Origin: an uncultured Chloroflexia bacterium
GTDB taxonomy: Bacteria; Chloroflexota; Anaerolineae; Anaerolineales; UBA4823
Direction: 5' to 3'
Length of the DNA: 64,000 nucleotides
Assembly (NCBI GenBank): GCA_963753725.1
Contig: CAVWDI010000012.1
Coordinates: 56,320-120,319, forward strand
Part shown: positions 26,638 to 61,102 of the stretch, piece by piece
Layout: every line of letters begins with the position of its first letter
Position numbering within the stretch: the first letter of the stretch is position 1
Program-made: the position numbers and the translations under genes
Notes under the pieces: model-generated
Seen by the model: only the letters and a program-made list of their open reading frames with translations
What the model was told of the DNA's origin: nothing
The model's database searches: none

Positions 26638-27166
26638 TTATTTCTTCTTTCCTGATTTTGAAGGCGCTAATACCATAAGCATTGTCCTGCCTTCTAAGGA
26701 TGGCGCCTGTTCTACAATTGCTACATCAGACAAGTCTTCGGCCACTTGTTTTAGATCTTCTAGCGCTAATTCCGGATAAGTTATTTCACGTCCTCGAAAA
26801 CGAATTCGAACCTTGACTTTCTTTCCGCTCTCTAACCAGCGTTTTGCGGCCCGAACTTTTAAGATTACGGTGGTGTTCATTCGTTTTTGGTCGTAGGCGA
26901 ATTTCTTTTACCTCGATTTTGGTTTGTGACCTTCGGGCTTCGCGTTCTTTCTTTGCACGCTCGTAAATAAATTTTCCAAAATCCATCACCCGGCATACGG
27001 GTGGTGTAGCATTGGGAGCAATTTCTACTAAATCGAGTTCTGCTTCACGAGCCAGTCGTTGGGCATCTTGGATGGAAACTACTCCTACATTCTGTCCATC
27101 GGCTCCGATCAATCTTACTTCTCTTGCCCTTATGGTTTCATTTACCCGATAGTTTGTCGCGCTGAT
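26638..27166 (-). CDS. infC: Translation initiation factor IF-3 (non-AUG start; one frame break at the T4 run 26857-26860, likely indel artefact)
   Basis: Fragments 26786-27112 and 26638-26880 join as ...[38 protein letters not shown] once one base is removed from the A4/T4 run. The N-terminal [21 protein letters not shown] is in frame with an ATC at 27166-27164, 6 nt after GAGGAG. No in-frame ATG/GTG/TTG precedes the conserved N-terminus. Confidence 0.85.
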
Positions 27167-43805: not shown

Positions 43806-44999
43806 CTAAGGACAGGCGTTTTTTAGATGTTCCTGGTAGCTTTCTGCGAAAGAGTGTCGACCAGAACCATCGCAGGTTGCACGGAAGTAAAAGTATGGTG
43901 TTTGATCTGGTTCCGCAACTGCCTGTAGCGCGTTGAGACCAGGGTTCGAGATCGGACCTGGGGGTAAATCCGGATAAACGTAAGTGTTGTATGGTGAATC
44001 AATCAGCAGATCTTCAGAACGAAGTGGGTTTGTCCACCAGGTTTTCTGATCGGGGTTATAACCCATCGCATACTGAACGGTGGGGTCTGATTCGAGCATC
44101 ATATCGTTTGAAATTCGATTCAAGAAAACCGAAGCGATCAGAGGAGCTTCATCTTCGATTACGGCTTCCTTCTGGACGATTGAAGCCAGAATAACCCCTT
44201 GATATAAGCTTAAACCCTGTCGTTTGAAGCCTGCCTGAATTTCATCATTTACTTTGATCTGAAAATTTTCGAATGTTTTCAAAATAAACTCTTCCACGTT
44301 AGTATCCCGGCCAAATCTATAAGAATCAGGGTAGAGGTAACCTTCCGTAGTAGTATCGGGGGGTAGTTCCAAATTGAAAACAAATTCCGCCGGCGGCATC
44401 GAAGCCATTTCGATGAATTCTTCCGGTGTAATACTCAAGCCCGAAGTCGGGAGAGCGGCTGCAATTTCTTCCATGCGCCATCCAGGAAATACTCTAAATA
44501 TCACTTCTCCAGGAGTGGAATCCTGCAATTCGGCTGCAATTTGTAAGGCTGTCATGCTGGGACTCAGATTGTACTTGCCTGCCTGGATTGTAGTATCCAG
44601 CCCGGAGTAGACCAGGAAATTGCGCATGGCTGCCGCGTTCGAAATAATCCCCTCTGCTTCTAAGCGGTCTGTTAATTCGTAAGTTGTTTCTCCCATCGAT
44701 ATTTCAAATGAGCGTGCGGTACCGAGTCGGTCCTTGGACAGCAGCAGATCGTTCTCCTGTGACAGTAAAACAGCCGAAAGGTATGCCTGGTCAACAGGAT
44801 CGATATTATCAGCGGATGAGCCGTATTTTTGCGCGGCGAGACTTGGGAGACCGATAATTAGAAAACCTGCAAATACCGCTACCAGTATGACCAGGATGGT
44901 AAATGTGATTAGAAATATGACTAAGAATGAGGTCAGCCGTTTCATAATATTGGTGGTGAGTATGCTACCGGTTCCGGTTAATATTTGGCTAACTTTCAC
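43806..44999 (-). CDS. mltG: Endolytic murein transglycosylase MltG (YceG family)
   Basis: 397 aa. N-terminal TM anchor. EGYLYPDSYRF, ILASIVQKEA, SVFLNRI, PYNTYVYPDLPPGPISNPG motifs. A GTG start at 44999 or the ATG at 44945 are both possible. Confidence 0.9.
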   Translation of the reverse strand: MKVSQILTGTGSILTTNIMKRLTSFLVIFLITFTILVILVAVFAGFLIIGLPSLAAQKYGSSADNIDPVDQAYLSAVLLSQENDLLLSKDRLGTARSFEISMGETTYELTDRLEAEGIISNAAAMRNFLVYSGLDTTIQAGKYNLSPSMTALQIAAELQDSTPGEVIFRVFPGWRMEEIAAALPTSGLSITPEEFIEMASMPPAEFVFNLELPPDTTTEGYLYPDSYRFGRDTNVEEFILKTFENFQIKVNDEIQAGFKRQGLSLYQGVILASIVQKEAVIEDEAPLIASVFLNRISNDMMLESDPTVQYAMGYNPDQKTWWTNPLRSEDLLIDSPYNTYVYPDLPPGPISNPGLNALQAVAEPDQTPYFYFRATCDGSGRHSFAESYQEHLKNACP

Positions 45000-45432
45000 T
45001 TTCCGGTTTTAACAGCTTTTCAATTTCTTCAGAGTCTAAAAAAGTCTGTAATATGAACGCTGCCGCGATATCATCCACATGCGATTTGCGTTTGCGGCGC
45101 GAGACTCCCATAAAAATTTGTGCATCACGGACCGCTTGTGTACTGCCGCTTTCATCCCACAGCGCCACATCAATATCAGATATAGAACGGATTTCTCCTG
45201 CCAGACGTTCTGCACGTTTACTCTGGTAGGTTGATTTATTATCAGCATTCAACGCCTGTCCAATAATAATCAGCGCGGCATTATTTTCGGTTGCCAGATT
45301 GAGGATTGCAGCCGCGTCCGCCTTTCGGGATTTGTGGGTAAGGATTGTGAGTGGATTTGCGATTGTGTGGGTAGGATCACTTATCGCTAATCCAATTCGT
45401 TTTTCCCCGGGATCAACTGCCAATATTCTCAT
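44989..45432 (-). CDS. ruvX: Holliday-junction resolvase-like nuclease RuvX (YqgF)
   Basis: 147 aa. MRILAVDPGEKRIGLAISDP N-terminus and DESGST motif. Confidence 0.9.
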   Translation of the reverse strand: MRILAVDPGEKRIGLAISDPTHTIANPLTILTHKSRKADAAAILNLATENNAALIIIGQALNADNKSTYQSKRAERLAGEIRSISDIDVALWDESGSTQAVRDAQIFMGVSRRKRKSHVDDIAAAFILQTFLDSEEIEKLLKPESES

Positions 45433-45517
45433 AAATCGTCTTTTTGGGGTATTTTTTAGACTCGGGTAACCATATGTTTTAAAGGTAATAGGTCTGACGG
45501 TAAATCAATTTCATAAA

Positions 45518-46657
45518 TCAGAATTGATAATCTTTGATGGTATCCACAACCCTGGATAATTCTTGCTCTTCCAGTGTATTGTAAAACGGAAGCCTCAGCA
45601 GCCTTTCGCTTATGTTTTCTGTCACGGGGCAATCCCCTAGATTTCCTCCGAATTTGCGCCCCATCTGTGAGGTATGCAGGGGCAAATAATGAAATACACT
45701 CAAGATTTTATGTTTCCTAAGATGCTCTATCAAACCCTGCCGGATGTCCATTGTTGGCAGGATGATATAAAACATATGGTAGGGTTGGGCGCACCATTCC
45801 GGGAAAATCGGCAGTCGTGTCCCAGTCTCATGAGCCCAATCAGATAGATTGTTTTTATAGAATTCCCAAATATGTTTTCTTTTACTTTGGATCGATTCAA
45901 ATGCTTCAAGTTGAGCATACAGGAAACCTGCCAGCATATCGGACGGCAGGTAACTCGATCCAATATCAACCCAGGTATATTTATCCACCTGACCTCTGAA
46001 GAAACGGCTGCGGTTGGTACCTTTCTCGCGCAATATTTCAGCCCGCTCAATATATCTCTGGTCATTTATCAGTAACGCGCCGCCCTCTCCACAAGTTATA
46101 TTCTTTGTCTCGTGAAAGCTCTGAGTCGCTAAACAACCGAAAGTCCCAAGATACATTCCTTTATACTTTCCGAAGAGACCATGGGCATTGTCTTCTACCA
46201 CATGAACCTGGCGCCTGTTTGTTATTTCTAAAATCGTATCCATTTCACAGCCGACACCCGCGTAATGGACAGGTACTACTGCTTTTGTTTTTTCGGAGAT
46301 CAAAGCTTCCAAGAGATTTTCATCCAGATTCAGTGTATCTGGGCGGATATCTATGAATACAGGTACCGCGCCGCGGTTGACAAACGCGTTTACAGTTGAA
46401 ACAAACGTAAAAGATGGGATGATCACCTCATCGCCAGGCTTAATATCCAGAAGGTAGGCGGCCATTTCCAGGGCGTGTGTGCACGAGGTGGTTAATAACG
46501 CTCTTGGAAGATCAAAGGATTCTTCCAGCCATGCATGGCATTTTCGGCTGAAAAATCCATCGCCAGATATGTGATAGTTTTCAATAGCTTGAGAGATATA
46601 CTGAAGTTCATTCCCCATAAGGGTTGGTTTGTTGAAGGGAATTTCGTATTGGACCAT
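45518..46657 (-). CDS. wecE: dTDP-4-amino-4,6-dideoxyhexose (WecE-type) aminotransferase
   Basis: 379 aa, colinear with E. coli WecE. Shared blocks include IPFNKP, SGDGFFSRKCHAWLEE, PSFTFVSTVNAF, FHETKNITCGEGGALLIND, REKGTNRSRFFRGQVDKYTWVDIGSSYL and RLLRLPFYN. Confidence 0.85.
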   Translation of the reverse strand: MVQYEIPFNKPTLMGNELQYISQAIENYHISGDGFFSRKCHAWLEESFDLPRALLTTSCTHALEMAAYLLDIKPGDEVIIPSFTFVSTVNAFVNRGAVPVFIDIRPDTLNLDENLLEALISEKTKAVVPVHYAGVGCEMDTILEITNRRQVHVVEDNAHGLFGKYKGMYLGTFGCLATQSFHETKNITCGEGGALLINDQRYIERAEILREKGTNRSRFFRGQVDKYTWVDIGSSYLPSDMLAGFLYAQLEAFESIQSKRKHIWEFYKNNLSDWAHETGTRLPIFPEWCAQPYHMFYIILPTMDIRQGLIEHLRKHKILSVFHYLPLHTSQMGRKFGGNLGDCPVTENISERLLRLPFYNTLEEQELSRVVDTIKDYQF

Positions 46658-46664
46658 TATTGTT

Positions 46665-47424
46665 TTAGGATACCTGATTCGAGAACCACTTGTGATAATA
46701 GATTTGAACGTCTTTTATGATCAATCCCAGCCGAATGAGCATGCGGTTGGTGGTTATATTCCGGCCCTGCGTATTCGTTACGATATTTTTTGTCCCATTC
46801 CGTACATGCCAATCAAGCCCACCGCTGAATAATTCGTGTCCGATGCCAAGCCCGCGCGCTTCTGGACGAACCGCCATGATTTCCAATGTGCCGTCTAGGC
46901 CATCTTTTTCACGATTTCCGGAGATATAACCCATGACCTGCCCTTTAAGTTCAGCCACCAGAACAAAATCTGCGAAACCATTCACGCTGTTCTTTACCCA
47001 GACTGGATAATATGCGCTAGTTTTTTCTTTCGGAAAATCGGGATCGAAATACCAGCGCGAATTCACAAAGCTGTCCGTTGACATATCTATCAATGTTTGG
47101 ATGTCGTCGGATCTTGCAATTCGCAGGTGGACATCTGGATGCCGTATCTTTCTGGTATTCGGATCCCAACCGTCAAGGGATAATTCATAGCTGATCCTTA
47201 TCTCGACATTCCGAAAGCCATTCTCTTCAGCCAGGCGGATCGATTGGATGTCATCCGAAATCAGCGATGTAGTACAGGCAGTCGATTTTATTTGCACTGC
47301 TCCAAGCCAGGATCGCATCGAGGACGGATGGGGATAGTTTGCCTTCGGTTATCTTCCCAATACGGAGCCTAAAGAAATCACTATCCCAGCTTAAAAATTG
47401 ACAGTGCTCAATCTGAGATTTCAT
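46665..47424 (-). CDS. WecD-like GNAT acetyltransferase (dTDP-4-amino-4,6-dideoxyhexose N-acyltransferase-like; one frame break near 47262)
   Basis: The N-terminal fragment has LSWDSDFFRLRIGKI, the WecD-type N-domain opening. The C-terminal fragment has the GNAT acetyl-CoA motif RPEARGLGIGHELF. The fragments join at ...IDCLYY / ISDDIQSIRLAEENGF. Confidence 0.7.
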
Positions 47425-48379
47425 CCTGGTTCTCTGGTTCAATGCTTTGAATGCGTACTACATAAGCGGGTTTTTCCATCAAGTTGAAATGCATACGTGC
47501 CAGGTATTCTCCGATTATCCCCAGTGAAAAAAGTTGAACGCCAGAAAAAATGGCGACAATGGATGCCAAAAATGGAAAACCGGGAACGCTGCCGCCTTCA
47601 ATAATGAAGCGGCCGATCACGTAAATCAAGATGAGAAATCCGAAAACCGCAAATCCAAATCCGAGCAAACTCGCCAGTTGCAGCGGCAGCACGGTAAAAC
47701 CGGTCGTCATATTTATTGCCTGGCGGAGCAGCTTTCTGAAGTTATAGTTTGATTTTCCATCCTTGCGGGGATCATGGTTTACCGGAACGGAAGAAAAGCT
47801 GGTCGTCCCCCAGGCCAGCAGCACATCTATAGAAACGAAAGGGCTGTGGTATTTTGAAAAGGCATCTCGAACACTGGTACGAAATGCACGGAATGCGCTC
47901 ACGTTGCGTGCATTTTTGACTCCCATTGCACCCCGCAGCGCCAATCGGATCAGGTAAGAGGAAAATATTCGCCACAAAGCATGTTGCTGCCTCATGGGAG
48001 TCCCGTACACTACATCAAATCCTTCATGTAAAGGATCGAGTAGTTTTCCGATTTCTCCCGGAGGGTGCTGCAGGTCATCATCCATTGTCACTGTAATATC
48101 ATATTTAGCAGACCGGATGCCGCATAATAAAGCGTTGTGTTGGCCGTAATTGCGCATCAGATTGATGCCTTTCACCCACTGGTATTCTTCACTCAGCGAT
48201 TCGATTACCTGCCAACTTTGATCACGGCTGCCGTCATTCACAAGGATTACTTCGTGCGAAGAGCTTATGGTGGGAAGCGCTTGCATCAAGCGTGTAGCTA
48301 GTTCATCGAGCGTATCATGGCTGTTGTAAACTGGAATAACGACGGAAATTCCGGGATGTGGGATATCTTTGATAGACAT
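47408..48379 (-). CDS. GT2 polyprenyl-phosphate glycosyltransferase (ArnC/GtrB/DPM1-like, two C-terminal TM helices)
   Basis: 323 aa. VVIPVYNS, ILVNDGSRD, NYGQHNALLCG and DDDLQHPP motifs, plus two C-terminal hydrophobic helices and the IGEYLAR motif typical of lipid-carrier-loading GT2 enzymes. Confidence 0.85.
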   Translation of the reverse strand: MSIKDIPHPGISVVIPVYNSHDTLDELATRLMQALPTISSSHEVILVNDGSRDQSWQVIESLSEEYQWVKGINLMRNYGQHNALLCGIRSAKYDITVTMDDDLQHPPGEIGKLLDPLHEGFDVVYGTPMRQQHALWRIFSSYLIRLALRGAMGVKNARNVSAFRAFRTSVRDAFSKYHSPFVSIDVLLAWGTTSFSSVPVNHDPRKDGKSNYNFRKLLRQAINMTTGFTVLPLQLASLLGFGFAVFGFLILIYVIGRFIIEGGSVPGFPFLASIVAIFSGVQLFSLGIIGEYLARMHFNLMEKPAYVVRIQSIEPENQDEISD

Positions 48380-48381
48380 TT

Positions 48382-50409
48382 TTACTGGCTTTCACATTGC
48401 AGGGTCTGGTAGAGCTGCTCGGAGGCTTCACGACCCTCATCGAATTGGATATTATCCTCTTGAATTCTATCCCAAGTTGCACAAAGTGCAAACCTGGTCA
48501 CAGGAGCCAATTTATAGGTTTGTTCGGATAATTGAATGGATTTACCCAATTGCCCAACACGCGCATAACCTTCAATAAATGGCAGCAATTCATCGATATT
48601 ATTCTCATCCAGTTCTTCCATGAAAGCCTGGGCCTGGTCGCCCAATGTCGCCACCTCACCCCAATCACCTTTCTGACGGGCAAGCTCAGCTTTCTGGTAG
48701 TAATAACACCAATCATGTTCTGGAGTTGGACCAAAAATGTGGTAAGGAGGGGAAGCAGGTGGATCCGCGTCTGTAATTATCCGCTTGGGATTTGATATTT
48801 CCCGCGCTTCAGGTCGCAGATAATTGCTTTCTGGAATTCGTGACTTCATTTCAGGATCGAATATCGTTACACAGCGGGGTGGTTGGTAGGTAAAAAGCAG
48901 GGTATCTGACATTCTTCCTGTGAAGGATTTTGCCCGGTAATTATGCTCGATTTCGTTATGCGGATCAAAGTTTGTTATTTCATTTCCTAAACGGGCTTCT
49001 AAATCCAATATAAGGTAGGACATTTCTGAAGAATGGTTGTGTGGATCATACGTCCAATTGAGAGGCGCCGTCAGGGAATTATCGCTGTAATAAGTGAACG
49101 GCAGTTCAGGCGTTAATAACAAGGTCGCGGATTTAATCCCGGGCGCGCGCCAGGTGAGCTGTCTGAAAAAATTCTTTTGCAATTCCCATTCCTGGATATA
49201 TGTTAAACCTGTCAAAAAATGCGTCCCTACAGCCAGACCAGCCAGTATACAAATAACAAGAGCCCTGGTTTTCTGTCCTTTGAAAAAATATTCAATTAAC
49301 CCGTAGTTAGCAAACTGACACCCATGATCATCGGTAGGGTGAAACGGTCCAGAGGAAAGCGCAGTTTTAACTGCAGGTCTGTCGCCCAAAATGGCCAGCC
49401 TGCAACCAGCAGTGAAATAATCCCGAGCAGCATGTAGTATTGTGCGCCAGCTTTCGGGTTCGAACCTGAGGCGTTATCATCACCCTGGTTGTGCGATTCG
49501 AGTTTCAAAACTAAATAATAAGTTAAACTCGCTGTAAGCAGCGCGTAGGAGTAAAAATAATATTGAATAAATTAGATTGAGACCGATCAAACTGCGCAAG
49601 TCAAACGTTTTAATCCAGGAAATAAAACTGGCTTCGAGCAAGTCTTGGAATATGGTGGTCAGCAGATAAAACGATCCTGAGATTGGAGTTGAAGCCAGGA
49701 TATCAAAAATTTTAATTTGACCCCTGGGGGTATCATGAAGGAAAACCGTATAGATCAAGAAGAAAAGAAGGAGCATTACATATGGAGACCAATAGAGTAG
49801 AGTTTTCTTTAAACGATCGCGAGCAGACTTGTATTTTTCAGAAAATACGATCCATAGAATTACTGGTCTGAGAAGTTCTAACCCGAAATAGTATTCAACT
49901 GTGAACAGCACGAACCCGGATAACAACAGCGACAGAATAAACACAGGCCATAATCTGGTTGGATTTCTGGCAGCTAAAACCATCAATCCCAGCGAGATGG
50001 TAAAAATAGTGGAGAGAATAAAACCGTGGCTGTATGTAACGGAGACGTACTGCTGGAGGAAACCAGGGTAAATAACAAATAGTATAGCTGCGATGGCGGC
50101 AAATTTTTTCCAGCGAGGGAAAAGTACTCCTAAGAACCACCAAAGTGCAACGGCATTTATCCAGCGTGAAATAATTCCAAAGACCTGCCATCCCACAGTT
50201 GACTCACGCATAATGGGAGTTGTGATCTGGAATAACCACGCCAGAAGCGGGCGGTCAACGGAAAATACCTGGCGGAATCCGCTGGCCCCAAGTGAATTAA
50301 AAAACCAGATTGCAGGCCAATCATCCCAATAAAAACCCAGCCATGGGATCAGCGGCGCAAAACTCAGCGTACATAATATAAGCAGTGCCCCGGGGATATA
50401 ATATTTCAT
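48382..50409 (-). CDS. GT-C-like polytopic membrane protein, paralogue 1 (two frame breaks near 49500 and 49315)
   Basis: Fragments 49480-50409, 49296-49508 and 48382-49389 are colinear with paralogue 2. About 12 TM segments, an acidic first-loop motif FYWDDWP, and a large C-terminal soluble domain. The GT-C assignment is inferred from topology and context, not from a recognised signature. Confidence 0.6.
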
Positions 50410-50434
50410 TTCAATTATTGGAATTCAGAGGATA

Positions 50435-52477
50435 TCAACGTATCTGACATTTGAGCGTGTCGATACTCTCCGCAATAAACTTCCCTCGCTCGTCATCCGC
50501 GAGCTGGTTTTGAGAAAGATCAATCCAGGTTTCACAAATCGAATCATGAATTAAGTCCGAATATTTGATAACTTTGATTGAGGCATCTAATGCATCCTGC
50601 CAGCGGTCTGTATGCGCGAACCCTTCAATGAATGTGATTAATTCAAAGGCATTGTTTGAATTAAATTCTTTTCGTATTTTCAAAGCCTGATCACCTATGC
50701 GAGCCACTTCTTCCCAATCGTTATTCTGACGGGCCAGTTCCGCTTTTTCAAAATAATAGCACCAATCGTGTTCAGGCTCCGTTCCATAGTATTCAATGGG
50801 AGGCATCGCTTGTGTGCCAGAATCAATAATCACATCACCCGGTTTAGAAAGGTGAACTGCATTGGGTATATAACCCGGTTTTCTGGGCCAATAGGAATTT
50901 TTTCTGAATCAATCACCTTCAGACATCTCTCCGGTGAATAATAAAACAAAAGGGCTTGCGATGTTGAACCGTTAAATGATGTTGCTCGATAGGGCTGTTC
51001 GACAGCGGTTCCGCTCTCAAGGTCTGGCAGGATATTCCCCAGACGAGCATCGATATTCATGAATGAGATCGGCATATCACGCGTATTATTGTCAGGAGCA
51101 TATGTCCAATTAAAAGGCGCGGTCAGGGAATTGTCTGTTACATATTTGAAAGGTAAATCAGAGGTAAGCAGTACTGTGCCTGGTTTTATGTCAGGCGCCC
51201 GCCAGACAAACTGCCACATAAAGGCTTTTTGATAGTTCCAATCTCGGATGTAGTCCAGGCCAATCTGAAAGTGAAATCCAGCTGCGAGTCCGACAATAAT
51301 TGAGAGGATTATTGTTCGCTGCCAATTCTTCCTGGTGATCAATGTAATCACTGCGACCAGTAAAATGCAGGCGCCTAACATCAAGATCAATGTAAAGCGG
51401 TCCCATGGAAAACGTAATTCGATCTTTAAATTGGTCGCCCAAATTGGCCAACCCGCGACTAACAATGAATAGATTCCCAGCAGTATCGCCTGGTATTCCC
51501 ATCGAATACCGAAAATATTATTCGATTCTGTCTGAGTACCATTTCGAGATTTGAGGGAATTCATATAGAAAAATGTCCCCGTAGCAGAAATCACGATGAT
51601 TCCAGCTATCATTAAAATGATACTGTTTCTATATACAAGTAGATCATTGACATTAAATGTTTGCAGCCACGCCAGAATACTGGATTTGTAGATGTCAGCG
51701 AACATCGTCCCGAGCAGGGCGATAATTGTTCCAAAAAAATCTGTCTGTAAATCTTCAAAAATCGTGATTTCCCCTCTGGGAGTCTCTGGTGCCGATTCGA
51801 TAAACAAGGAAAAGTATTAATATCCCCAGGTATGGAAGCCAACGTTTGATGGCCGTGAATAAACGATCACCCCAATTTTTATTCGGCCTGTTATCACACA
51901 ATAACAGTACCGCAGGACGCAGCAGTTCGAGGCCAACATAATACTCCAGTGTAAACATTGTGATGGCAGACGTGATAAGGGAACTGAGGAAAAACGGCCA
52001 AAACCACTTCGGATTGCGGTATGCCAGGATCATCGTCCCTAAACTGAACATAAATACGCTGGACAAAATGAACATATGGCTGTAAGTAACAGGAATAAAC
52101 TGCTGCATAAAACCTGGATAGACAATAAACAACAATGAAATCCATAAGGCTTCGATTGTGCGGTCAGGCCATATCAAACGCAGTAACCACCACAACGCCA
52201 GGCCGCTGAGCCAGCGTGTGAGGATCCCAAAGATACTCCAGACGATTAAAGATTTCCCGACCAACCAGGTGGTGAGCATAAAAAGCCAACCAAGCGTTGG
52301 CCGGTCAATGGTGAACACATCCGGAAAGACTGTCGGACCGTAAAAATGAATGAACCACAGCGAGGGCCAATCGTCCCAATAGACGCCCAGCCTGGAGATC
52401 AGGGGGACATAGGTGACAAAACTAATTGCTAACAGGAAAAATGGTACGCTCCTGGCGGAAAAGGAAATCCTTTTCAT
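50435..52477 (-). CDS. GT-C-like polytopic membrane protein, paralogue 2 (two frame breaks near 51803 and 50865)
   Basis: Fragments 51755-52477, 50830-51807 and 50435-50833. Shares VYWDDWP, DRP, YPGFxQQ, VTYSHxFILS, EYYxGLELLRP, LLVAGWPxWAT, NSLTAPxNWTY and EHDWCYYxxKAELARQ blocks with paralogue 1. ATGA overlap with the alaS stop at 52474-52477. Confidence 0.6.
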
Positions 52478-55230
52478 TTCTGGCTGTCGCTTTGCAGGTT
52501 TTCTTCTACCCAGGATGGCACTTTTGCTAGCGCTTCTTCTAACTTAGAAGCATCCTTGCCTCCAGCCTGGGCCAGGGTTGGCCGGCCGCCGCCTCCTCCA
52601 CCCAGCGGCGCTGCCACGAATGTAACCAGGTCTCTGGCGTGCAATCCTTGTTTAACCAGGTCGTCCGTTACCGCGGCTAATACGATCGGTTTTCCGTCCG
52701 CAGTCGTACTTGCTAAAACCGCCACACCGCTCGGGTTGCGTTCCCGGAATTTGTCGGTTAGGAACCTCAAGGTTTCCATATCAGCATCTGAAAGCACGGC
52801 AGTCAGGACTTGCGCGCCGCCAACGGTTTGTGCTCTATCCATTTGTTCGACAAAGGTCAGTGCAGCTGTCTGGCGGCGTAGATCAAGGAACTTCTTCTGG
52901 ATGTTGTTCTTTTGGGAAATAAGCTCCTCAACTTTTATGGGAACATTTTCAGCCGCGGTTTCTAATATGGAAGATGTCTGTCTGAGGGCAGATATTTGCT
53001 GTTTCGCCATCGCATACGAGAACCTGCCGGTTACCGCTTCAATACGACGGATACCTGCTGCGGCGCTGCCTTCGCTGGTGATGAGAAACAATCCAATATC
53101 GCCTGTCTCTTCTACATGCGTGCCGCCGCAAAGTTCATTTGAGAAAATATCTGGCTCTCCAATTGTGATATTTCGGACGGTTTCGCTGTATTTTTCACCA
53201 AACAGGGCGATTGCACCATCATCGATCGCTTGCTGCAACGGTTTAAATTTTATATTCAGATTGAAGTTACCCAAGATTGCCTGGTTGACACCGTTTTCAA
53301 TGGCTTCAAGTTCTTCGTTTGAAAGCGCGGCAGGGTGGGTAAAGTCAAAGCGCAGTCTGTCAGGCACCACCAGGGAACCAGCCTGACGGGCATGATCGCC
53401 TAAAACAGCCCGCAGTTGGGAGTGGAGCAGGTGAGTGGCGGTATGGTTGCGCATGATATCAATGCGCCGCTGTCCATCTACCTGCGCACGCACGCGGTCA
53501 CCAATTTTAGGTTGGCCGCGCACGACTTCGCCTGCATGAACGATCATTCCAGCCGAAGGTTTACGCATGTCATTTACTTTTATTTCCCACTCTTGATCCG
53601 GAAAAGAGATAATTTTCCCTGCGTCTGATATCTGACCGCCGGCAGTAATGTAGAAACATGTTTCCGGGAGAAGCACTTCAATTTGGTCGCCAGCGCTGGC
53701 TTCCGAAATTGGAACTCTGTCGCGTACCAATGCGAGTACCGCTCCCTCAACTTCCAACTGATCATAAGGGTTATAGCGTACCCCCGACGAATCCAGTTTA
53801 CCTTCACGTTTTAATTCAGTATTTATGCTGCGGTAAATTTCTGCGTCTTCTCCACCCAACGGACCAAGTCCCTCCCCGCTGCCTGAAATCAAACGATGTT
53901 CTTCCATCGCTTTGCGGAAATTGGATTCTTCAACTTCCAATCCGCGCTCTCGGGCAATGTCCTGAATGATTTCAAGAGGCAGACCATAGGTTGCATACAA
54001 TTCGAAAGCTGTCTCACCGGGGAGCACTCGTTCATTTCTGGATTCAAGATCAGCCAGTAGGCCTTCCAATTTTGTAATGCCGCTTTCTACCGTGCGTTTG
54101 AACCGCTGTTCCTCGCGTGTTATGCTGTCAGTGATGGCTGCCTGGTTGCCGCGCAGCTCGGGGAAAAACTCGCCATAATTTTCAATTACCTGCTCAGCCA
54201 CTTGGGCGAGGAATGGTTCATCCAACCCTATTTTCGAGCCGAACCGTGAAGCACGCCGGATGATCATGCGGCAAACGTAATTCCTCCCCATATTTCCTGG
54301 AACCACGCCGTCTGCTATTAGAAATGCGGCCGCGCGGCTGTGATCGGCAATCACCCGATACGGCGTTAGGTTAGCCTCCCGTTCTTGAGCGTTATGACCG
54401 GCAAGTTTTTGAATCGTGTCCATGAGCGGGATAAAAAGGTCGGTTTTGTAATTAAAATCCACATCCTGCAGCACCGAAACAATTCGCTCAAATCCCATCC
54501 CAGTATCAACATGCGTGGCAGGCAGGGGGTCAAGATGGCTGGGACCGGTGCGATTGTATTGGATAAACACCAGGTTCCAAAGTTCCAGGAAACGCTGGCA
54601 ATTGCCATTTACTTTGCATTCGTGACCGGGTTCATCTCCTTTGTCACAATATTTCTGACCGCGATCCAGATGAATTTCACTGCATGGACCGCAAGGACCT
54701 TTTTCTGCCATCTCCCAGAAGTTGTCTTTGCGGCCAAAGAAAAGGATCTGGGATGGATTTATGCCAGGTTGTTTCTTCCATTCTTCTACCGCTTCATCAT
54801 CCTGCGGTATTTCCCCCAATTCATCTTTGAAACATGTGGCCCAAATATTTTCTCGGGGTAATCCCCACACTTCTGTGAGCAGTTCCCAGGCCCAGGTGAT
54901 AGCCTCTTTTTTGTAATAGTCGCCGAATGACCAATTTCCAAGCATTTCGAAAAAGGTGTGGTGGGTGTCGTCCCTTCCTACGTCCTCTAAATCATTGTGT
55001 TTACCGGCAACTCGCATACATTTTTGCGAATTTACTGCTCTTGTGTAAGGGCGTATATCTGTGCCGAGAAAAACGTCCTTGAATTGAACCATCCCGGCAT
55101 TGGTGAACAGCAACGTTTGGTCCCCACCTGGTACTAACGAAGAAGAACGAACGAAAGTATGTGCGTGATCTTCGAAGTATTTAATAAAATCCTGGCGGAT
55201 TTTTGCGCCCGACAATTTGGTTGAAATCAT
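52474..55230 (-). CDS. alaS: Alanine--tRNA ligase
   Basis: Start taken at ATG 55230 (MISTKLSGAKIRQDFIKYFEDHAHTF, the canonical AlaRS N-terminus). The 40-codon ORF-track extension is non-conserved-looking. Editing-domain HxxxH (HTATHLLH) and the C-terminal C-Ala/DHHA1 region are present. Confidence 0.95.
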   Translation of the reverse strand: MISTKLSGAKIRQDFIKYFEDHAHTFVRSSSLVPGGDQTLLFTNAGMVQFKDVFLGTDIRPYTRAVNSQKCMRVAGKHNDLEDVGRDDTHHTFFEMLGNWSFGDYYKKEAITWAWELLTEVWGLPRENIWATCFKDELGEIPQDDEAVEEWKKQPGINPSQILFFGRKDNFWEMAEKGPCGPCSEIHLDRGQKYCDKGDEPGHECKVNGNCQRFLELWNLVFIQYNRTGPSHLDPLPATHVDTGMGFERIVSVLQDVDFNYKTDLFIPLMDTIQKLAGHNAQEREANLTPYRVIADHSRAAAFLIADGVVPGNMGRNYVCRMIIRRASRFGSKIGLDEPFLAQVAEQVIENYGEFFPELRGNQAAITDSITREEQRFKRTVESGITKLEGLLADLESRNERVLPGETAFELYATYGLPLEIIQDIARERGLEVEESNFRKAMEEHRLISGSGEGLGPLGGEDAEIYRSINTELKREGKLDSSGVRYNPYDQLEVEGAVLALVRDRVPISEASAGDQIEVLLPETCFYITAGGQISDAGKIISFPDQEWEIKVNDMRKPSAGMIVHAGEVVRGQPKIGDRVRAQVDGQRRIDIMRNHTATHLLHSQLRAVLGDHARQAGSLVVPDRLRFDFTHPAALSNEELEAIENGVNQAILGNFNLNIKFKPLQQAIDDGAIALFGEKYSETVRNITIGEPDIFSNELCGGTHVEETGDIGLFLITSEGSAAAGIRRIEAVTGRFSYAMAKQQISALRQTSSILETAAENVPIKVEELISQKNNIQKKFLDLRRQTAALTFVEQMDRAQTVGGAQVLTAVLSDADMETLRFLTDKFRERNPSGVAVLASTTADGKPIVLAAVTDDLVKQGLHARDLVTFVAAPLGGGGGGRPTLAQAGGKDASKLEEALAKVPSWVEENLQSDSQK

Positions 55231-55333: not shown

Positions 55334-55482
55334 AGTCGGCTGCGAGTCACCTGCCCCAGAAATGTGGGACTTGAATATTTATGAAATTTTGCTAGAATAA
55401 TACAAGAAGAAGAGATTCAGACGGGTATAATGGATGAAGGACGGGAAGGACTATCTGATTCCTACCAGTTTTCTTGATAAAA

Positions 55483-56205
55483 ATGAGAAAAACAACCATG
55501 AATTCCAACGTATCGCTAGCTGCAATTGTTCCGGCTTTTAATGAAGCTGGACGGATCAGTAAAGTGGTGGATGTGTTATGCCAGGTTGAGCAAATTGATG
55601 AGATTATTGTTGTTGATGATGGTTCAACGGACGGCACTGCCCGGGATGCGGAAAATGCTGCCAAAGGTGATCCAAGAATAAAAATTCGGCGAAGCCCAGA
55701 AAATCTTGGAAAGGGGCAGGCGATTTATGAAGGCTGGAATTCCACCAATGCTCCGTTCCTCTTGTTTATGGATGCTGATTTAGTCAACTTAAAACCGGAA
55801 CACGTGGTTAATTTGATTGATCCAGTGTTGAAGGGACGGGCAGACATGACCATGGGTATCTTCAAAGATGGTTATTGGCGGGCTGACCTTGCTCAAAGAG
55901 TTACTCCCTGGCTGACCGGTCAGCGCTGTATCAGGTCGAAATTGTTAAGGGAAATCTCGTGGGATGCATCCAGGGGATATGGATTTGAGACAGCAGTTAC
56001 AATAGCGGCGCGTAAATATGACTGGCAGTCCGAACAAGTACCATTGGTCGGTGTCACCCACCCTTTGGGTGAAATTCCGCGCGGCGGTTATCATGGCTGG
56101 AAAACAAAAATGATATTGTTCTACCAGGTGGGACGAGCCTGGTATATTGCCAGAGATAGGGGGAAGGCCAGGGAATGGTTATTACGACTGGGTCGAACCG
56201 GGTAA
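55483..56205 (+). CDS. GT2-family glycosyltransferase (soluble)
   Basis: About 240 aa. AAIVPAFNEAGRI, IIVVDDGSTDGT and FMDADL (DxD) motifs, with no TM segments. The start is ambiguous (TTG 55474, ATG 55483 or ATG 55498). Confidence 0.8.
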   Translation: MRKTTMNSNVSLAAIVPAFNEAGRISKVVDVLCQVEQIDEIIVVDDGSTDGTARDAENAAKGDPRIKIRRSPENLGKGQAIYEGWNSTNAPFLLFMDADLVNLKPEHVVNLIDPVLKGRADMTMGIFKDGYWRADLAQRVTPWLTGQRCIRSKLLREISWDASRGYGFETAVTIAARKYDWQSEQVPLVGVTHPLGEIPRGGYHGWKTKMILFYQVGRAWYIARDRGKAREWLLRLGRTG

Positions 56206-56253
56206 CCCACAGCTTTCTGAATATTGAATAATTCCAAAATTTGAATATCCTTG

Positions 56254-57816
56254 ATGAATAAATATCTCTATTTCGCCGTGTTTGCTGCGGGTATGACAAC
56301 GTTGGCATTGGAATTAACTGCATCACGTCTGCTGGGAAGTTTTTTCGGCACCAGCAATCTGGTCTGGGCCAGCATTATTGGTCTTATCCTGATATACCTG
56401 ACGGTAGGATATCTGCTCGGGGGAAGGTGGGCCGATCGTTCCCCTTACTCTAAGACGATGTACCAGATTATGGCTTGGGGAGCGTTTAGCGCTGGATTAA
56501 TACCGTTGATCGCAAGGCCCGTCCTGCGCAGCGCAGCCGACGCATTTGACCTGCTGAATATCGGAGTGCTTTTCGGTTCATTTATTGCTGTCCTGGTTTT
56601 GTTCAGCCTGCCGGTAATTTTGCTAGGAACAATTTCACCTTTTGCTGTACGATTAGCAATAACGGACCGTGAACATGCCGGCAGGGTGTCAGGAAGGGTG
56701 TATGCTATTTCAACGATGGGATCGTTTATCGGCACATTTCTTCCGGTTTTAATCATGATCCCCCTGGTAGGAACCACAAAAACGTTCCTTTTATTCAGCG
56801 TTTTTTTATTAGCGGTAGCCTTGATTGGTTTGTGGCGTTGTTCAGGATGGCGAGCGGTATTGAGATTGATATGGATGCCGGTTATCCTGGCATTGGCTGC
56901 TTACTTTATGGTAAACACTCCCATAAAAAATACTTCTGGACAGATATTCGAAAGCGAGTCAGGCTACAACTATATTCAAGTGTTGGATATCGATGGCTTT
57001 CGTATGCTGCGTTTGAATGAAGGACAGGGGATTCATTCAATGTGGCATGAGGACCAATTGGATTATTTCGGTCCCTGGGAGCAGTTCCTGGCTGCGCCGT
57101 TTTTCAACCCAGCCATTTATGAACCTGAACGGGTTGAACGGATTGCCATCCTGGGTCTCGCGGCGGGTACATTCGCGCGCCAGGTGAACGAAATCTATGG
57201 TCCGGTTGCCATTGATGGTTATGAAATCGATCCCAAAATAATCGATGTCGGGCGAAAATTTTTTGCAATGAACCAACCCAATCTGAACGCCATCGCTCAG
57301 GATGGTAGGGTGGGTTTGCAGGGGAGTCAGGAACGCTATGATGTGATTGTCGTTGACGCCTACCGTCCCCCTTATATACCCTGGCATCTCACGACTAAGG
57401 AATTCTTCCAGCTTGTACATAATCATTTGACGGTTGATGGCGTAATGGCGATAAACGTGGGGCGATCGCCCGAAGACCGCCGCTTGGTGGATGCATTGGT
57501 AGGTACAATAAGCGCTGTTTACCCTTCGATTTACGTTATGGATGTGCCAGATACGTTTAATACAATCGTTTACGCAACTGTCCAACCAACGGTTATTCAA
57601 AACCTTTACGATAATCTGGTACATCTTTACTCACGACCTGATATCCACCCTTTGTTGATAGAATCCATCCAGAGAGTTGTGATCAACCAACAGCCAACCC
57701 CATCCAGCGATATTGTGTTTACGGATGATTGGGCTCCGGTTGAATGGATTACGAACAATCTAATTCTTGACTATGTCTTGTTTGGAGAAATTGATGAACT
57801 TGACGGGTACAGATAA
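56254..57816 (+). CDS. Membrane-embedded spermidine-synthase-like protein (polytopic N-domain fused to an aminopropyl/methyltransferase fold)
   Basis: About 520 aa. Seven to eight N-terminal TM helices, then ILGLAAGTFARQ ... GYEIDPKIIDVGRKFF ... YDVIVVDAY, a SpeE-like Rossmann domain. TTG 56251 and ATG 56254 are both possible starts. Confidence 0.8.
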   Translation: MNKYLYFAVFAAGMTTLALELTASRLLGSFFGTSNLVWASIIGLILIYLTVGYLLGGRWADRSPYSKTMYQIMAWGAFSAGLIPLIARPVLRSAADAFDLLNIGVLFGSFIAVLVLFSLPVILLGTISPFAVRLAITDREHAGRVSGRVYAISTMGSFIGTFLPVLIMIPLVGTTKTFLLFSVFLLAVALIGLWRCSGWRAVLRLIWMPVILALAAYFMVNTPIKNTSGQIFESESGYNYIQVLDIDGFRMLRLNEGQGIHSMWHEDQLDYFGPWEQFLAAPFFNPAIYEPERVERIAILGLAAGTFARQVNEIYGPVAIDGYEIDPKIIDVGRKFFAMNQPNLNAIAQDGRVGLQGSQERYDVIVVDAYRPPYIPWHLTTKEFFQLVHNHLTVDGVMAINVGRSPEDRRLVDALVGTISAVYPSIYVMDVPDTFNTIVYATVQPTVIQNLYDNLVHLYSRPDIHPLLIESIQRVVINQQPTPSSDIVFTDDWAPVEWITNNLILDYVLFGEIDELDGYR

Positions 57817-57829
57817 AGGACCAAAATAT

Positions 57830-58549
57830 ATGAATGAATATTCAAAGCAAAAAGAATTGAATTTGAATCCGAACCGGGATGATCAAAAGGATTTTGGATG
57901 GGTTTATAAATTTTTAGGATGGGTGGTAACAATTCTCGTTCCTGTAGCACTTGTGCTGATATCGGTCAGGCTGGTGATGAGCCCTACTCTAGTACATTTT
58001 GAATACAACCAACCTGGATTTCCGCCCGATCCATATGGTTTTTCAAAAGAGGACAGGTTGTACTGGTCTCAGATTGCCCTGGATTACCTGTTGAATTCGG
58101 AAGGTATAAACTTCTTGGAGGAATTGCGATTTGAGGACGGCACACAGGTATACAATGCACGCGAACTTCGCCACATGCTGGACGTAAAGAATACTGTGCG
58201 CGTTGTGATATATGTTTTGTACATTTCAATAGGGGTGTTGGTCGCTCTGGGTGCCTTGTCGTGGCACAGCGGTTGGTGGGGGATGTATAAATCAGGATTA
58301 TCCAGAGGGGGATGGTTGACCGTGTTTTTGATTGGGACGATAATCCTTTTCGTATTTTTAAGTTTCGGTATATTGTTTGTAGCTTTTCACAATGTGTTTT
58401 TCCAATCGGGAACCTGGACGTTTAATTTCAGTGACACTTTAATCCGCTTGTTTCCGGAACGCTTCTGGCGGGATATATTCTTAATTGTCGGAGGGTTGTC
58501 CCTGGCTGGCGGTTTCCTCCTCGGTCTTGGTTTGCGACCAAAAAAGTAA
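57830..58549 (+). CDS. TIGR01906/DUF1461 integral membrane protein (Lit-like)
   Basis: Start taken at ATG 57830 to avoid a 50-nt overlap with the upstream gene. TM helix, then FEYNQPGFPPDPYGFSKEDRLYW ... ELRHMLDVKN, then three C-terminal TM helices, matching my recollection of the DUF1461 pattern. Confidence 0.65.
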   Translation: MNEYSKQKELNLNPNRDDQKDFGWVYKFLGWVVTILVPVALVLISVRLVMSPTLVHFEYNQPGFPPDPYGFSKEDRLYWSQIALDYLLNSEGINFLEELRFEDGTQVYNARELRHMLDVKNTVRVVIYVLYISIGVLVALGALSWHSGWWGMYKSGLSRGGWLTVFLIGTIILFVFLSFGILFVAFHNVFFQSGTWTFNFSDTLIRLFPERFWRDIFLIVGGLSLAGGFLLGLGLRPKK

Positions 58550-58635: not shown

Positions 58636-59541
58636 TTAATCGAAGACCATCAGGCCAATATCTGTCATTTCACAGCGCGTACCAAAACCTTTATTGGTCC
58701 CTGAATGAACGGAAAATGATAGTGTGCCTGGGGTGATATTCCCATCGTATGAATTGAAAACTTCTTCCCCATCTACAAAGAATGAAGCCCTTTGATCCTG
58801 AACGGCTAATATTAGCTCTGCTTCTCCCTCAGGGGTGGAAACCGGGCCGATGTAATGTTTGATGAGAACCTCCTCGTTCCCATTGACCCATTTCTTGAAA
58901 AAAGCCATATCCATCAAGACTTAAATAAACGAGATGAAAATTTTCATCATCCCTCTCGCCGAATACCCACCCGCATCCGGAAAATGGCCAGTTGGCGATA
59001 TCGCTGGCTGAGCTCCATTTCACATCCGCCCGGATAACAAAATTCTCGGGTTCAAAATCCGTATTCCACCAGGTGAAAGTAGTTTAATTGGGCAAATTCC
59101 TGGTTGAAATCTTCAAAAGGTGTAAATTCTTCTCCGATCTCTGAAATGACTCCTTGGTCGTAGAGAAAATCCAGGTCGTCATTCATTTTTTGTTCCAACT
59201 CAGTCATCTCTTCAGGTTCTTCGGTGACAGTATCTTCCGTCTCTTCAACTACCTGCTCTTCAGTCGCTTGCGGTTCCTGTACAGCTTCAGCCGCCGAAGC
59301 GGTGTTTTGGGCATCGATTGCGGCTTGAGCGTCAGCTGTCTCCTGAGCTTGAGCAGACTTTTTCGGCGTCCGCAGTGGATTGCGCTTTCAACTGTTCGAG
59401 TTCGAGCGCCTGAGATGTCATGGTTAATTGGGCTCCGAGGTCAGGCTGCGCTGGTTCTTCCGTAGCATCGGATCCGAACGAACATGCTAATGTTATTAAA
59501 ACGAGTGCTGCAGCAGCATAGTAATATTTTCTCTTTATCAT
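58636..59541 (-). CDS. Secreted lipoprotein with acidic linker and concanavalin/LamG-like (DUF1080-like) C-terminal domain (three frame breaks)
   Basis: ATG 59541 gives MIKRKYYYAAAALVLITLAC (lipobox). The junctions reconstruct at the T5 run 59359-59363, near 59070, and at the A6 run 58898-58903. The joined C-terminus reads FVIRADVKWSSASDIANWPFSGCGWVFGE ... LDGYGFFKKWVNGNEEVL ... The domain call is tentative. Confidence 0.5.
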
Positions 59542-60849: not shown

Positions 60850-61102
60850 AAGATGAGATCTCCTTTCTCGATTTACGGGAATATAGTGAATCTATTATAG
60901 CCATACTTTTGTTAAAAGTAAATAATAAATGGAAGGAATCAGGAGCATTTTATAATATTTCAGTTGGCCTTGATCGGAAAGTTCCTGGCAAAATTATTTT
61001 GCATTTGCTAAAAGGTTGGCGCCCGTATTCACAGACTAAAGGTATACTTCAAATAAATTTGTTAATCTTGTCGAAACTCTCTGCTCAATTTAGAATTTGA
61101 TT

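Follow-up and report, generated by a model that had tools for sequence, protein, structure and literature searches.

The genes considered here lie on the minus strand of the window, the 64,000-nt stretch of DNA that was analyzed, and its open reading frames bear out the gene order given in the initial annotation: alaS, two paralogous membrane proteins of ~680 residues (paralogue 2, then paralogue 1), a GT2 glycosyltransferase, a GNAT acetyltransferase, WecE, ruvX and mltG. The upstream neighbor, alaS (alanyl-tRNA synthetase), spans 52474..55230; its longest open reading frame extends to 55350, and homology to the 917-aa AlaS of the related locus L002 begins at 55230. Its stop shares an ATGA (52474-52477, read directly) with the start of paralogue 2 (50435..52477; ~681 aa after correction of two 1-nt indels), a predicted GT-C-fold membrane glycosyltransferase. 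After 25 nt follows paralogue 1 (48382..50409; 675 aa, likewise after correction of two 1-nt indels and with the same predicted fold), and after 2 nt more a GT2 of the ArnC/GtrB polyprenyl-phosphate glycosyltransferase type (47408..48379; 323 aa). The predicted WecD-like two-domain GNAT N-acetyltransferase (46665..47424; 252 aa after correction; Pfam Acetyltransf_1) is separated by 7 nt from the WecE-type dTDP-4-keto-6-deoxyhexose 4-aminotransferase (45518..46657; 379 aa, intact; Pfam DegT_DnrJ_EryC1, E=2e-84). Downstream lie ruvX (YqgF; 44989..45432; Pfam RuvX, E=2e-34), whose protein product is identical in four other assemblies, and mltG (YceG family; 43806..44999; Pfam YceG, E=9e-75).

Three of the five cassette genes, both large membrane genes and the GNAT, are broken as written by five 1-nt indels, most likely sequence errors; the initial annotation had treated them as intact. 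Of the spacing claimed earlier, the ATGA overlap and the gaps of 25, 2, 7 and 85 nt stand but the two remaining overlaps need qualification. As written, the GNAT frame begins at 47318 and leaves 89 nt to the GT2, and only once an extra T at 47258 is removed does it start at 47424 and overlap the GT2 by 17 nt, an overlap also present in the related loci L001-L004. The 11-nt overlap of ruvX and mltG requires a GTG start of mltG; the likely start is ATG 44945, where homology with the protein of L002 sets in, which gives a 43-nt gap. The 85-nt gap between WecE and ruvX shrinks to 84 nt once an extra base at 45458 is removed. Spacing on the strand is tight, with overlaps of 4 and 17 nt and gaps of 2 to 25 nt, an arrangement that lends support to a common pathway, and sites resembling promoters or terminators are no more frequent there than chance would give.

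The five protein assignments all hold at the level at which they had been claimed, the clearest being WecE, which scores 566.6 bits against NCBIfam PRK11706 (cut-off 375) and 537 bits against TIGR02379 (cut-off 434.85). Its identity can thus be put at the equivalog level, with the C-4 stereochemistry of the product not readable from sequence. The corrected GNAT also matches its proposed counterpart best, aligning with positions 7-227 of 232 of PRK10975 (WecD) and, among solved structures, with WecD itself (2fs5, E=8e-8), but its 84.9 bits fall far below the cut-off of 219; it is a distant, WecD-like relative, not a WecD orthologue. Pfam and NCBIfam searches detected no WecF-type cytoplasmic Fuc4NAc transferase and no Wzx/Wzy among the cassette genes.

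The GT2 matches Pfam Glycos_transf_2 (E=9e-28), and its best NCBIfam matches, ArnC (179.9 bits) and PgfS (158 bits), are both full-length and both below cut-off. Because the ArnC equivalog cut-off (NF007986) is 529 bits, we regard the protein not as an ArnC orthologue, but as ArnC-like in predicted function. Its closest structure in the PDB is ArnC (9bhc, E=1e-49), followed by GtrB (5ekp, 2e-45) and DPMS (5mlz, 1e-19), consistent with the lipid-phosphate type and the two C-terminal TM helices described for it initially. Residues 7-317 are collinear with ArnC residues 6-318 of 327, both TM helices included, and D100-D-D-L-Q-H105 aligns with ArnC 100-DADLQN-105. This catalytic DxDLQ motif has been described for ArnC together with R128, R137 and R205, the arginines that engage the phosphates of acceptor and donor (PMC12690121); the GT2 keeps R137 and R205, and R128 aligns with P128, with an arginine two residues on at 130.

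What are the two large membrane proteins? Their reconstructed sequences are 41% identical end to end, and the family to which they belong numbers at least 1,600 clusters at 50% identity. None of the large-protein fragments matches a Pfam or NCBIfam family, nor does P0001, an intact relative that is 98% identical to paralogue 1; Pfam PMT_2 matches 2 of 60 members, with E of 0.001 or weaker, and sequence-profile searches with the ~680-aa proteins found no solved GT-C enzyme. Structure prediction is more informative. An AlphaFold model of P0001, representing paralogue 1, has a pLDDT of 89.4 and a pTM of 0.89, and its Foldseek matches at a probability of ~1 are exclusively GT-C enzymes: PglB, STT3, ArnT, Pmt4 and DPY19 are found at 1.00, the GT-C matches including AftD span 0.9-1.0, and transporters reach at most 0.35. 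TM-scores against the GT-C structures are only 0.30-0.37, and E-values no better than about 1e-4. From this model, we predict with high confidence that paralogue 1 has a GT-C fold and not that of a transporter, and the 41% end-to-end identity leads us to infer the same fold for paralogue 2; the earlier GT-C-like call thus stands for both proteins, by prediction for one and by homology for the other. The protein has 11-13 hydrophobic TM helices, with the N terminus of TM1 inside. Directly after TM1, in a first outer loop of 52 residues with two short helices, lies W28-D29-D30-W31, which is invariant across 60 homologues, as are D52-R53-P54, E172, E178, R181, D354-R355, R421 and D443-N444-S445. 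The C-terminal ~105 residues are TPR-like, with about three repeats, ahead of which lies a small alpha/beta subdomain without a match, and the C-terminal domain is acidic and contains four invariant cysteines. This GT-C family is apparently undescribed.

The cassette is not peculiar to this genome. We surveyed 78 Anaerolineae genomes (loci), with denominators that vary by count. In 64/71 loci the GT2 gene sits downstream of the GT-C gene at a distance of no more than 600 nt, with one to four GT-C copies per single GT2; 39 of 55 loci have WecE in the flank, in every case in the same orientation as the GT2 and downstream of it; and alaS precedes the cassette in 36 of 61. Scattering of these genes in relatives had been named at the outset as a possible refutation, and they are instead linked across many genomes; relatives at 80-98% identity have an identical gene order with all genes intact. 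The suggestion that the cassette was inserted into an alaS-ruvX-mltG block, on the other hand, is not supported as far as a recent event is concerned: since the alaS-cassette-ruvX-mltG order is common to many Anaerolineales genomes and composition deviates only mildly (GC 0.447 vs 0.463), we see here no recent insertion but an old arrangement that many members of the class share. It is also modular. The N-acyl module differs by lineage, being either a GNAT or a WbqC-like protein plus a methyltransferase, and the GT2 tree separates a GNAT-linked from a WbqC-linked clade, a split that may mirror species phylogeny. In some lineages WecE and GNAT are missing: 10 of the 55 loci have GT-C and GT2 genes with neither, and a further 6 have GNAT without WecE, so the GT2 is not strictly tied to the 4-acetamido sugar proposed below. 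In the Leptolinea clade only, a DedA/VTT gene (a weak UptA match) adjoins the GT-C gene.

Our favored reading, which we consider reasonably probable, is that the cassette produces an N-acetylated 4-amino-6-deoxy sugar, which is then put on a lipid carrier in the membrane and passed to extracellular targets. WecE would aminate dTDP-4-keto-6-deoxy-D-glucose, presumably supplied by RmlA and RmlB encoded elsewhere, and the WecD-like GNAT would N-acetylate the 4-amino group to give dTDP-4-acetamido-4,6-dideoxyhexose (Fuc4NAc or its gluco epimer). The ArnC/GtrB-type GT2 would then load this sugar, a donor suggested by gene linkage, onto undecaprenyl phosphate at the inner membrane face, and a flippase encoded outside the cassette would carry the lipid-linked sugar across the membrane. 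As the initial annotation had stated, the window lacks rmlA/rmlB and small flippase genes: neither Pfam scans, which covered the cassette and 10 candidate ORFs, nor inspection of the remainder by eye revealed rmlA/rmlB or GtrA/SMR/Wzx/DedA-type genes in the 64 kb, and between mltG and alaS there is no flippase gene of the GtrA, SMR, Wzx or MATE type. Finally, the two GT-C paralogues would pass the sugar to extracytoplasmic acceptors by means of the invariant acidic WDDW loop, probably each serving a different site or acceptor. That their donor is a polyprenyl-phosphate-linked sugar is suggested by the ArnC/GtrB-type GT2 encoded directly downstream in most loci. The TPR-like, cysteine-containing C-terminal domain hints, weakly, at protein acceptors.

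How does this scheme compare with known systems? Three- and multi-component transmembrane glycosylation has been reviewed (PMC8035078, PMC11127046), with examples that include GtrA/B/C of Shigella, CsbB-GtcA-YfhO and GtlA-GtcA-GtlB of Bacillus and Listeria, GacI-GacK-GacL of streptococci and the pentofuranose systems of Citrobacter. The wiring, which the initial annotation did not know to be described, is a variant of this theme and no new principle; what is apparently undescribed in this Arn/Gtr-type multi-component system is the GT-C family and the sugar. Like those systems, the cassette places a GtrB/ArnC-type membrane GT2 beside one or more GT-C enzymes whose first outer loop carries an acidic motif, and lets one lipid-sugar synthase serve several GT-C paralogues. 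Unlike them, it resides in Chloroflexota, its GT-C proteins belong to no Pfam family (the weak PMT_2 matches aside), it contains no GtrA/SMR/Wzx/MATE flippase gene, and, in place of Glc, Gal, GlcNAc or pentofuranoses, it has built-in genes for a dTDP-derived 4-acylamino-4,6-dideoxyhexose. Some of the known systems also encode their flippase elsewhere, for example GtcA (PMC8035078).

The Arn pathway (ArnB-ArnA-ArnC-ArnD-ArnE/F-ArnT) puts L-Ara4N on lipid A. It shares with the route proposed for the cassette a DegT-family 4-aminotransferase, N-acylation, ArnC-type loading of undecaprenyl phosphate and transfer by a GT-C enzyme at the outer face, and among solved structures none is closer to the GT2 than ArnC. 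The differences are that the predicted sugar is a dTDP-6-deoxyhexose and not a UDP-pentose, that the acyl group would be an acetyl added by GNAT and not a formyl added by ArnA, that the cassette has neither an ArnD-type deacylase nor ArnE/F, and that the GT2 reaches 180 of the 529 bits required of ArnC, while the GT-C proteins have no sequence match to ArnT. To our knowledge, Anaerolineae have no lipid A, so the acceptor must differ from that of Arn. With the Fuc4NAc branch of enterobacterial common antigen (WecE, WecD, WecF) the cassette has in common an equivalog-level WecE, a GNAT that matches WecD best and the predicted product dTDP-4-acetamido-4,6-dideoxyhexose; it departs from that branch in the 85 vs 219 bits of its GNAT, in the absence of WecF (a cytoplasmic GT56) and of Wzx/Wzy, and in the predicted transfer of the sugar onto a lipid monophosphate carrier. 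A GT-C domain followed by a lumenal or extracytoplasmic TPR-like module is also seen in TMTC1-4, eukaryotic TPR-bearing GT-C O-mannosyltransferases (PMC7801869), and Pmt4, of the PMT family of protein O-mannosyltransferases, is among the fold matches at 1.00. Here, however, only about three repeats follow a subdomain without a match, a sequence relationship is undetectable, the donor is a different sugar and any protein acceptor is putative.

Could the locus instead hold two independent, neighboring modules? The GT2 and GT-C proteins would then add a common UDP-sugar (Glc, GlcNAc or Gal) via undecaprenyl phosphate, and WecE and GNAT would supply a dTDP-4-acetamido sugar to another glycan pathway, a cytoplasmic one of the kind known from enterobacterial common antigen. 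The loci that keep GT-C and GT2 without the complete WecE/GNAT pair favor this idea, as does the 62-66% identity that the GT2 proteins of WecE-less loci retain to the window GT2, and the class members known to us use UDP- or GDP-sugars (reviewed in PMC8035078 and PMC11127046). We nevertheless judge it unlikely: WecE, where present in the flank, is invariably co-oriented with and downstream of the GT2; the GT2 and GNAT frames overlap here and in L001-L004; no WecF-like cytoplasmic transferase occurs among the cassette genes; and ArnC, to which the GT2 is closest among solved structures, acts on an N-acylated 4-amino sugar. In the GT2 tree, moreover, the loci that lack WecE and GNAT group in a separate subclade, consistent with a switch of specificity in those loci.

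A second alternative, that the ~680-aa proteins are oligosaccharyltransferase- or ligase/polymerase-like enzymes that transfer a preassembled glycan from undecaprenyl diphosphate (cf. PglB/STT3) in place of one sugar from undecaprenyl phosphate, seems to us very unlikely. PglB and STT3 are the top Foldseek matches, and the TPR-like C-terminal domain is akin to peptide-binding modules; however, ArnT and PMT score near PglB and all TM-scores are low, making the ranking of GT-C families barely informative. Against this alternative also stand the position of the gene directly upstream of a monosaccharide-phosphate-lipid synthase of the ArnC/GtrB type in 64/71 loci and the absence from the cassette of an initiating phosphoglycosyltransferase, Wzx or further glycosyltransferases.

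Returning to the monosaccharide-carrier pathway that we favor, we can extend it, tentatively and with somewhat less than even confidence, to the class as a whole: Anaerolineae would use undecaprenyl-phosphate-4-acylamino-4,6-dideoxyhexose, which an ArnC-like enzyme would form from a dTDP-sugar, as a hitherto undescribed lipid-linked donor. With it, a new, Pfam-orphan GT-C family with a TPR-like outer domain would glycosylate envelope proteins or wall polymers, and cell surfaces would be diversified by N-acyl groups that differ between lineages (acetyl, or a WbqC-type acyl plus methyl). All of the characterized polyprenyl-phosphate glycosyltransferases known to us use UDP- or GDP-sugars or PRPP, and none a dTDP-sugar; if this proposal is true, the ArnC-like GT2 would be the first dTDP-dependent member of its class.

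As to the broken frames, paralogue 1 is written as two fragments (49480-50409 and 48382-49389) and needs removal of an extra A at 49546 and restoration of a missing T at 49298. Paralogue 2 is written as three fragments in two frames (51755-52477, 50830-51807 and 50435-50833) and needs correction of one indel near 51.77-51.80 kb and of a missing G at about 50899; once reconstructed, it shares 84-88% identity with the 680-aa protein of L002, which is intact. Because near-identical metagenome contigs lack at least three of the five indels and the window also splits Lon, MetRS and MutS, the frameshifts are most likely sequence errors and not decay. That the cassette is decaying in this organism, with five real frameshifts and the GT-C genes and GNAT as pseudogenes, is highly improbable, for even though five frameshifts in about 7 kb are somewhat denser than elsewhere in the window, IF3 is split as well, a neighboring 303-aa gene has three frameshifts, a true loss of MetRS is implausible, and none of the window indels recurs in contigs from other samples (98-99.8% identical) where these cover its position. 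Contig L001 (98.1% identical) lacks four of the cassette indels (A 49546, T 49298, G ~50899 and T 47258), and four contigs that are 99.7-99.8% identical are without the extra base at 45458 between WecE and ruvX, one of them also without the extra base at 42353 in Lon.

On the minus strand the initial annotation had read mltG, ruvX, WecE, GNAT, GT2, large membrane proteins 1 (48382-50409) and 2 (50435-52477), and alaS, and this order and its coordinates are confirmed, as are the ATGA at 52474-52477 in which the second large gene overlaps alaS and gaps of 25, 2, 7, and 85 nt in the written sequence. A claimed 17-nt overlap of GNAT and GT2 is absent from the sequence as written, in which the GNAT ORF runs from 47318; deleting a surplus T at 47258 brings it out and gives a GNAT of 252 aa that starts at 47424. 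The two large genes had been taken as intact, which does not hold: the first is written as two ORFs and the second as three, both dropping out of frame and then re-entering in a three-frame translation. Two 1-nt corrections in each gene yield proteins of 675 and 681 aa that are 41% identical from end to end. Promoter and terminator scans gave no signal above chance.

Are these genes decaying, or is the sequence wrong? The frameshifts come from errors in the sequence. All genes are intact on L001, a metagenome contig of 4.7 kb that is 98.1% identical to positions 46496-51221, and four 1-nt indels in all set it apart from the window, at 47258, 49298, 49546, and ~50899; scattered 1-nt indels also lie at 42353, 45458, and ~51780, with further sites in 26786-27112, 31907-33539, 58639-59541, and 61097-63726. 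The extra base at 45458 is missing in all four of four further contigs from other samples that are 99.7-99.8% identical, and the one at 42353, inside Lon, is missing in one of the four; every window indel within the coverage of near-identical contigs from other samples is absent from them. Against a relative at 80-90% identity (L002), nine frame changes show up in the 22 kb that surround the cassette, one of them in Lon and three in a 303-aa gene, and MetRS, MutS, and IF3 are split elsewhere in the window; the damaged genes comprise these five and three cassette genes. A pseudogene reading is thus rejected on the indel-free contigs and on the essential genes that are split likewise; because real loss of genes such as Lon, MetRS, MutS, and IF3 is implausible, we take the organism's own copies of the cassette genes to be functional. 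Errors seem frequent in the source assembly, so the window should be read from its ORFs with caution.

WecE reaches 566.6 bits against NCBIfam PRK11706 (cut-off 375) and 537 bits against TIGR02379 (cut-off 434.85), and its assignment as a dTDP-4-keto-6-deoxyhexose 4-aminotransferase is firm; the C-4 configuration of its product is not firm. The corrected GNAT spans the whole WecD model but scores 85 bits where the cut-off is 219, its closest solved structure is WecD (2fs5, E=8e-8), and we classify it from its sequence as WecD-like. For GT2, ArnC (180 bits) leads the NCBIfam matches and PgfS (158 bits) comes next, each match being full-length and below cut-off, and the best solved structures are ArnC (E=1e-49, residues 7-317 against 6-318), GtrB (2e-45), and then DPMS (1e-19). 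The alignment to ArnC keeps a D-x-D-L-Q motif and ArnC residues R137 and R205 and covers both C-terminal transmembrane helices; the roles of the aligned ArnC residues are those described in PMC12690121. On these matches GT2 is classed as a polyprenyl-phosphate glycosyltransferase and not with processive or soluble GT2s, in keeping with the initial annotation.

Fragments of the two large membrane proteins matched no Pfam or NCBIfam family; among 60 homologues scanned at E up to 1 there was nothing beyond weak TPR matches and two weak PMT_2 matches, and a profile of the 60 searched against PDB sequences found no GT-C enzyme, only TPR/PPR designs at the C-terminus. The family is large: 849 matches among 90% clusters are all unnamed or "hypothetical", and at 50% identity there are 3,119 representatives at E<=1e-3 and 1,647 at E<=1e-30. 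We modelled P0001, an intact, 98%-identical twin of the first large protein, with AlphaFold using the 60 homologues as input (pLDDT 89.4, pTM 0.89). In a Foldseek search of the PDB, all matches with probability near 1 were GT-C enzymes, among them PglB (E=1.4e-4), yeast and human STT3, ArnT (1.7e-3), Pmt4, DPY19, AftD, and ALG3, and MFS and MATE transporters reached a probability of <=0.35. The predicted fold is GT-C, which bears out the initial suggestion of GT-C-like proteins; TM-scores of just 0.30-0.37 to GT-C structures make this a placement at fold level and in no particular GT-C family. Members of the family have 11-13 hydrophobic helices and an N-terminus that lies inside. Just past the first helix, an invariant W-D-D-W sits in a loop of 52 residues that contains two short helices, and other charged residues are invariant as well (D52-R53, E172, E178, R181, D354-R355, and R421). 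The C-terminal domain, acidic, of ~270 residues and with four invariant cysteines, was also modelled separately (pLDDT 89.1); TPR modules are the sole Foldseek matches of its final ~105 residues (E ~0.02-0.1), and the preceding alpha/beta subdomain has none, so the domain gives no firm clue to the acceptor.

A four-step scheme is the best-supported reading of the cassette, and what is shown for it is the class of each enzyme, the fold predicted for the membrane proteins, and the linkage of the genes. WecE and GNAT would make a dTDP-4-acetamido-4,6-dideoxyhexose (187.08 Da per residue, calculated from the formula); the ArnC-type GT2 would place this sugar on undecaprenyl phosphate; a flippase encoded elsewhere would turn the lipid-linked sugar outward; and the two GT-C paralogues would pass it to extracytoplasmic acceptors. 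We infer the GT2 donor, the flippase, and the acceptors. A gene for an ArnD- or NaxD-type deacylase is absent, and the sugar therefore probably remains N-acetylated. Analogy of the TPR-like tail with TMTC and with OGT-type TPR modules weakly suggests protein acceptors.

How widespread is this arrangement? A locus scan with one genome per species gave 557 confirmed matches, and linkage was counted by tblastn on the flanks of the best 78, with denominators that vary accordingly. All 78 are labelled Anaerolineae or Chloroflexota, and cultured carriers of related loci include Leptolinea tardivitalis YMTK-2, Leptolinea sp. HRD-7, and Ornatilinea apprima P3M-1. The number of GT-C copies per locus is 1-4. 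Of the 71 loci whose flanks are long enough, 64 have a GT2 <=600 nt downstream of the last copy; WecE is present in 39/55, GNAT in 23/55, and alaS lies upstream in 36/61. In the Leptolinea/Levilinea clade the cassette lies away from alaS and has the order DedA/VTT, GT-C, GT2, WbqC-like, methyltransferase, WecE, and the WbqC-like and methyltransferase genes in GNAT's place suggest that the amino sugar is unchanged but bears another N-acyl group. For example, in Leptolinea tardivitalis (L049, 9337-9885 and 12969-14310) a DedA/VTT gene stands directly upstream of GT-C and the WbqC-like and methyltransferase genes are present; the DedA/VTT gene of this clade weakly matches the undecaprenyl-phosphate transporter UptA.

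Some Anaerolineales loci have alaS, GT-C, GT2, a Baseplate_J-like gene, and ruvX, without WecE and GNAT. This ~505-aa gene (PF04865), which has no obvious prophage setting, lies between the cassette and ruvX in many Anaerolineales genomes, directly upstream of ruvX at 13218-14732 in L008, 6604-8121 in L018, and 8461-9981 in L087, and is absent from the window. Six other loci (L009, L013, L025, L032, L036, and L082) have a WecD-like GNAT after GT2 and no WecE in the flank; the next genes in L013 match no Pfam family, and one encodes a 516-aa protein with a weak sulfatase-like match below the Pfam cut-off. In a neighbour-joining tree of GT2, the GNAT-linked clade stands apart from the WbqC-linked clade, and the loci without WecE and GNAT form a subclade of their own. 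This split is consistent with a GT2 specificity that co-varies with the sugar genes; it may merely reflect species phylogeny.

The cassette had also been proposed to be an insertion in an alaS-ruvX-mltG block, three genes that we take to be near neighbours in Bacillus. Its GC content is 0.447, against 0.463 ± 0.008 in other 7-kb windows, and its tetranucleotide distance of 0.011 slightly exceeds the highest value among them, 0.0099. This is a mild deviation for which membrane-protein composition could account, and as a test for horizontal transfer we do not read it as a sign of recent insertion. Additionally, the order alaS-cassette-ruvX-mltG is common to relatives at 36-98% GT-C identity, so any insertion would be old. 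No direct alaS-ruvX junction, which would be the pre-insertion state, was seen among relatives of this group. One relative (L089, 1-20411; RuvX 64% identical) keeps the order ruvX-mltG-Lon-FolC-DUF218-HD and has a peptidase M23 gene and unrelated others upstream of ruvX, with neither alaS nor the cassette, which indicates that the left boundary of the block is variable in the group.

Three-component or multi-component transmembrane glycosylation is an established scheme (PMC8035078, PMC11127046), and that of the cassette is the same. Its sugar-activation logic is also like that of the Arn pathway; however, GT2 falls under the ArnC cut-off, the GT-C proteins have no ArnT sequence match, and ArnA and ArnD are absent, and compared with the ECA pathway GNAT falls under the WecD cut-off and WecF is absent, so that the cassette is a member of neither. 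Three features appear to be new, namely the family of the GT-C proteins, a dTDP-amino-sugar supply that is part of the cassette, and the phylum; our literature search, of limited coverage and thus absence of evidence only, found nothing specific on lipid-phosphate-linked Fuc4NAc or viosamine or on this GT-C family. The cassette makes a testable three-part prediction: a 4-acetamido-4,6-dideoxyhexose, a lipid intermediate, and an unannotated outer-face enzyme family. If true, it would enlarge the known set of GT-C families by one, widen the donor range of ArnC/GtrB-type enzymes to dTDP-sugars, and show that the succession of amination, N-acylation, loading onto a lipid, and transfer on the outer side by which aminoarabinose modifies lipid A also operates in a phylum that lacks LPS. 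Anaerolineae are abundant in sediments, sludge, and digesters; to our knowledge, their envelope chemistry is almost unknown and Chloroflexota is a phylum without LPS.

Two other groups of genes in the window deserve mention. Divergent from alaS on the plus strand (55474-58549) is a conserved trio of genes, which encode a GT2 of the soluble type (243 aa), a 521-aa polytopic membrane protein that includes a spermidine-synthase-like domain, and a lipoprotein intramolecular transacylase of the Lit family (PF07314), and this trio also adjoins alaS in the relatives' loci L002 and L003. On the minus strand at 13224-14540, a PAP2 phosphatase that weakly matches the undecaprenyl-diphosphatase SepP is encoded beside a frameshifted MobA-like nucleotidyltransferase; 30 kb from the cassette, this phosphatase may be linked to lipid-carrier metabolism.
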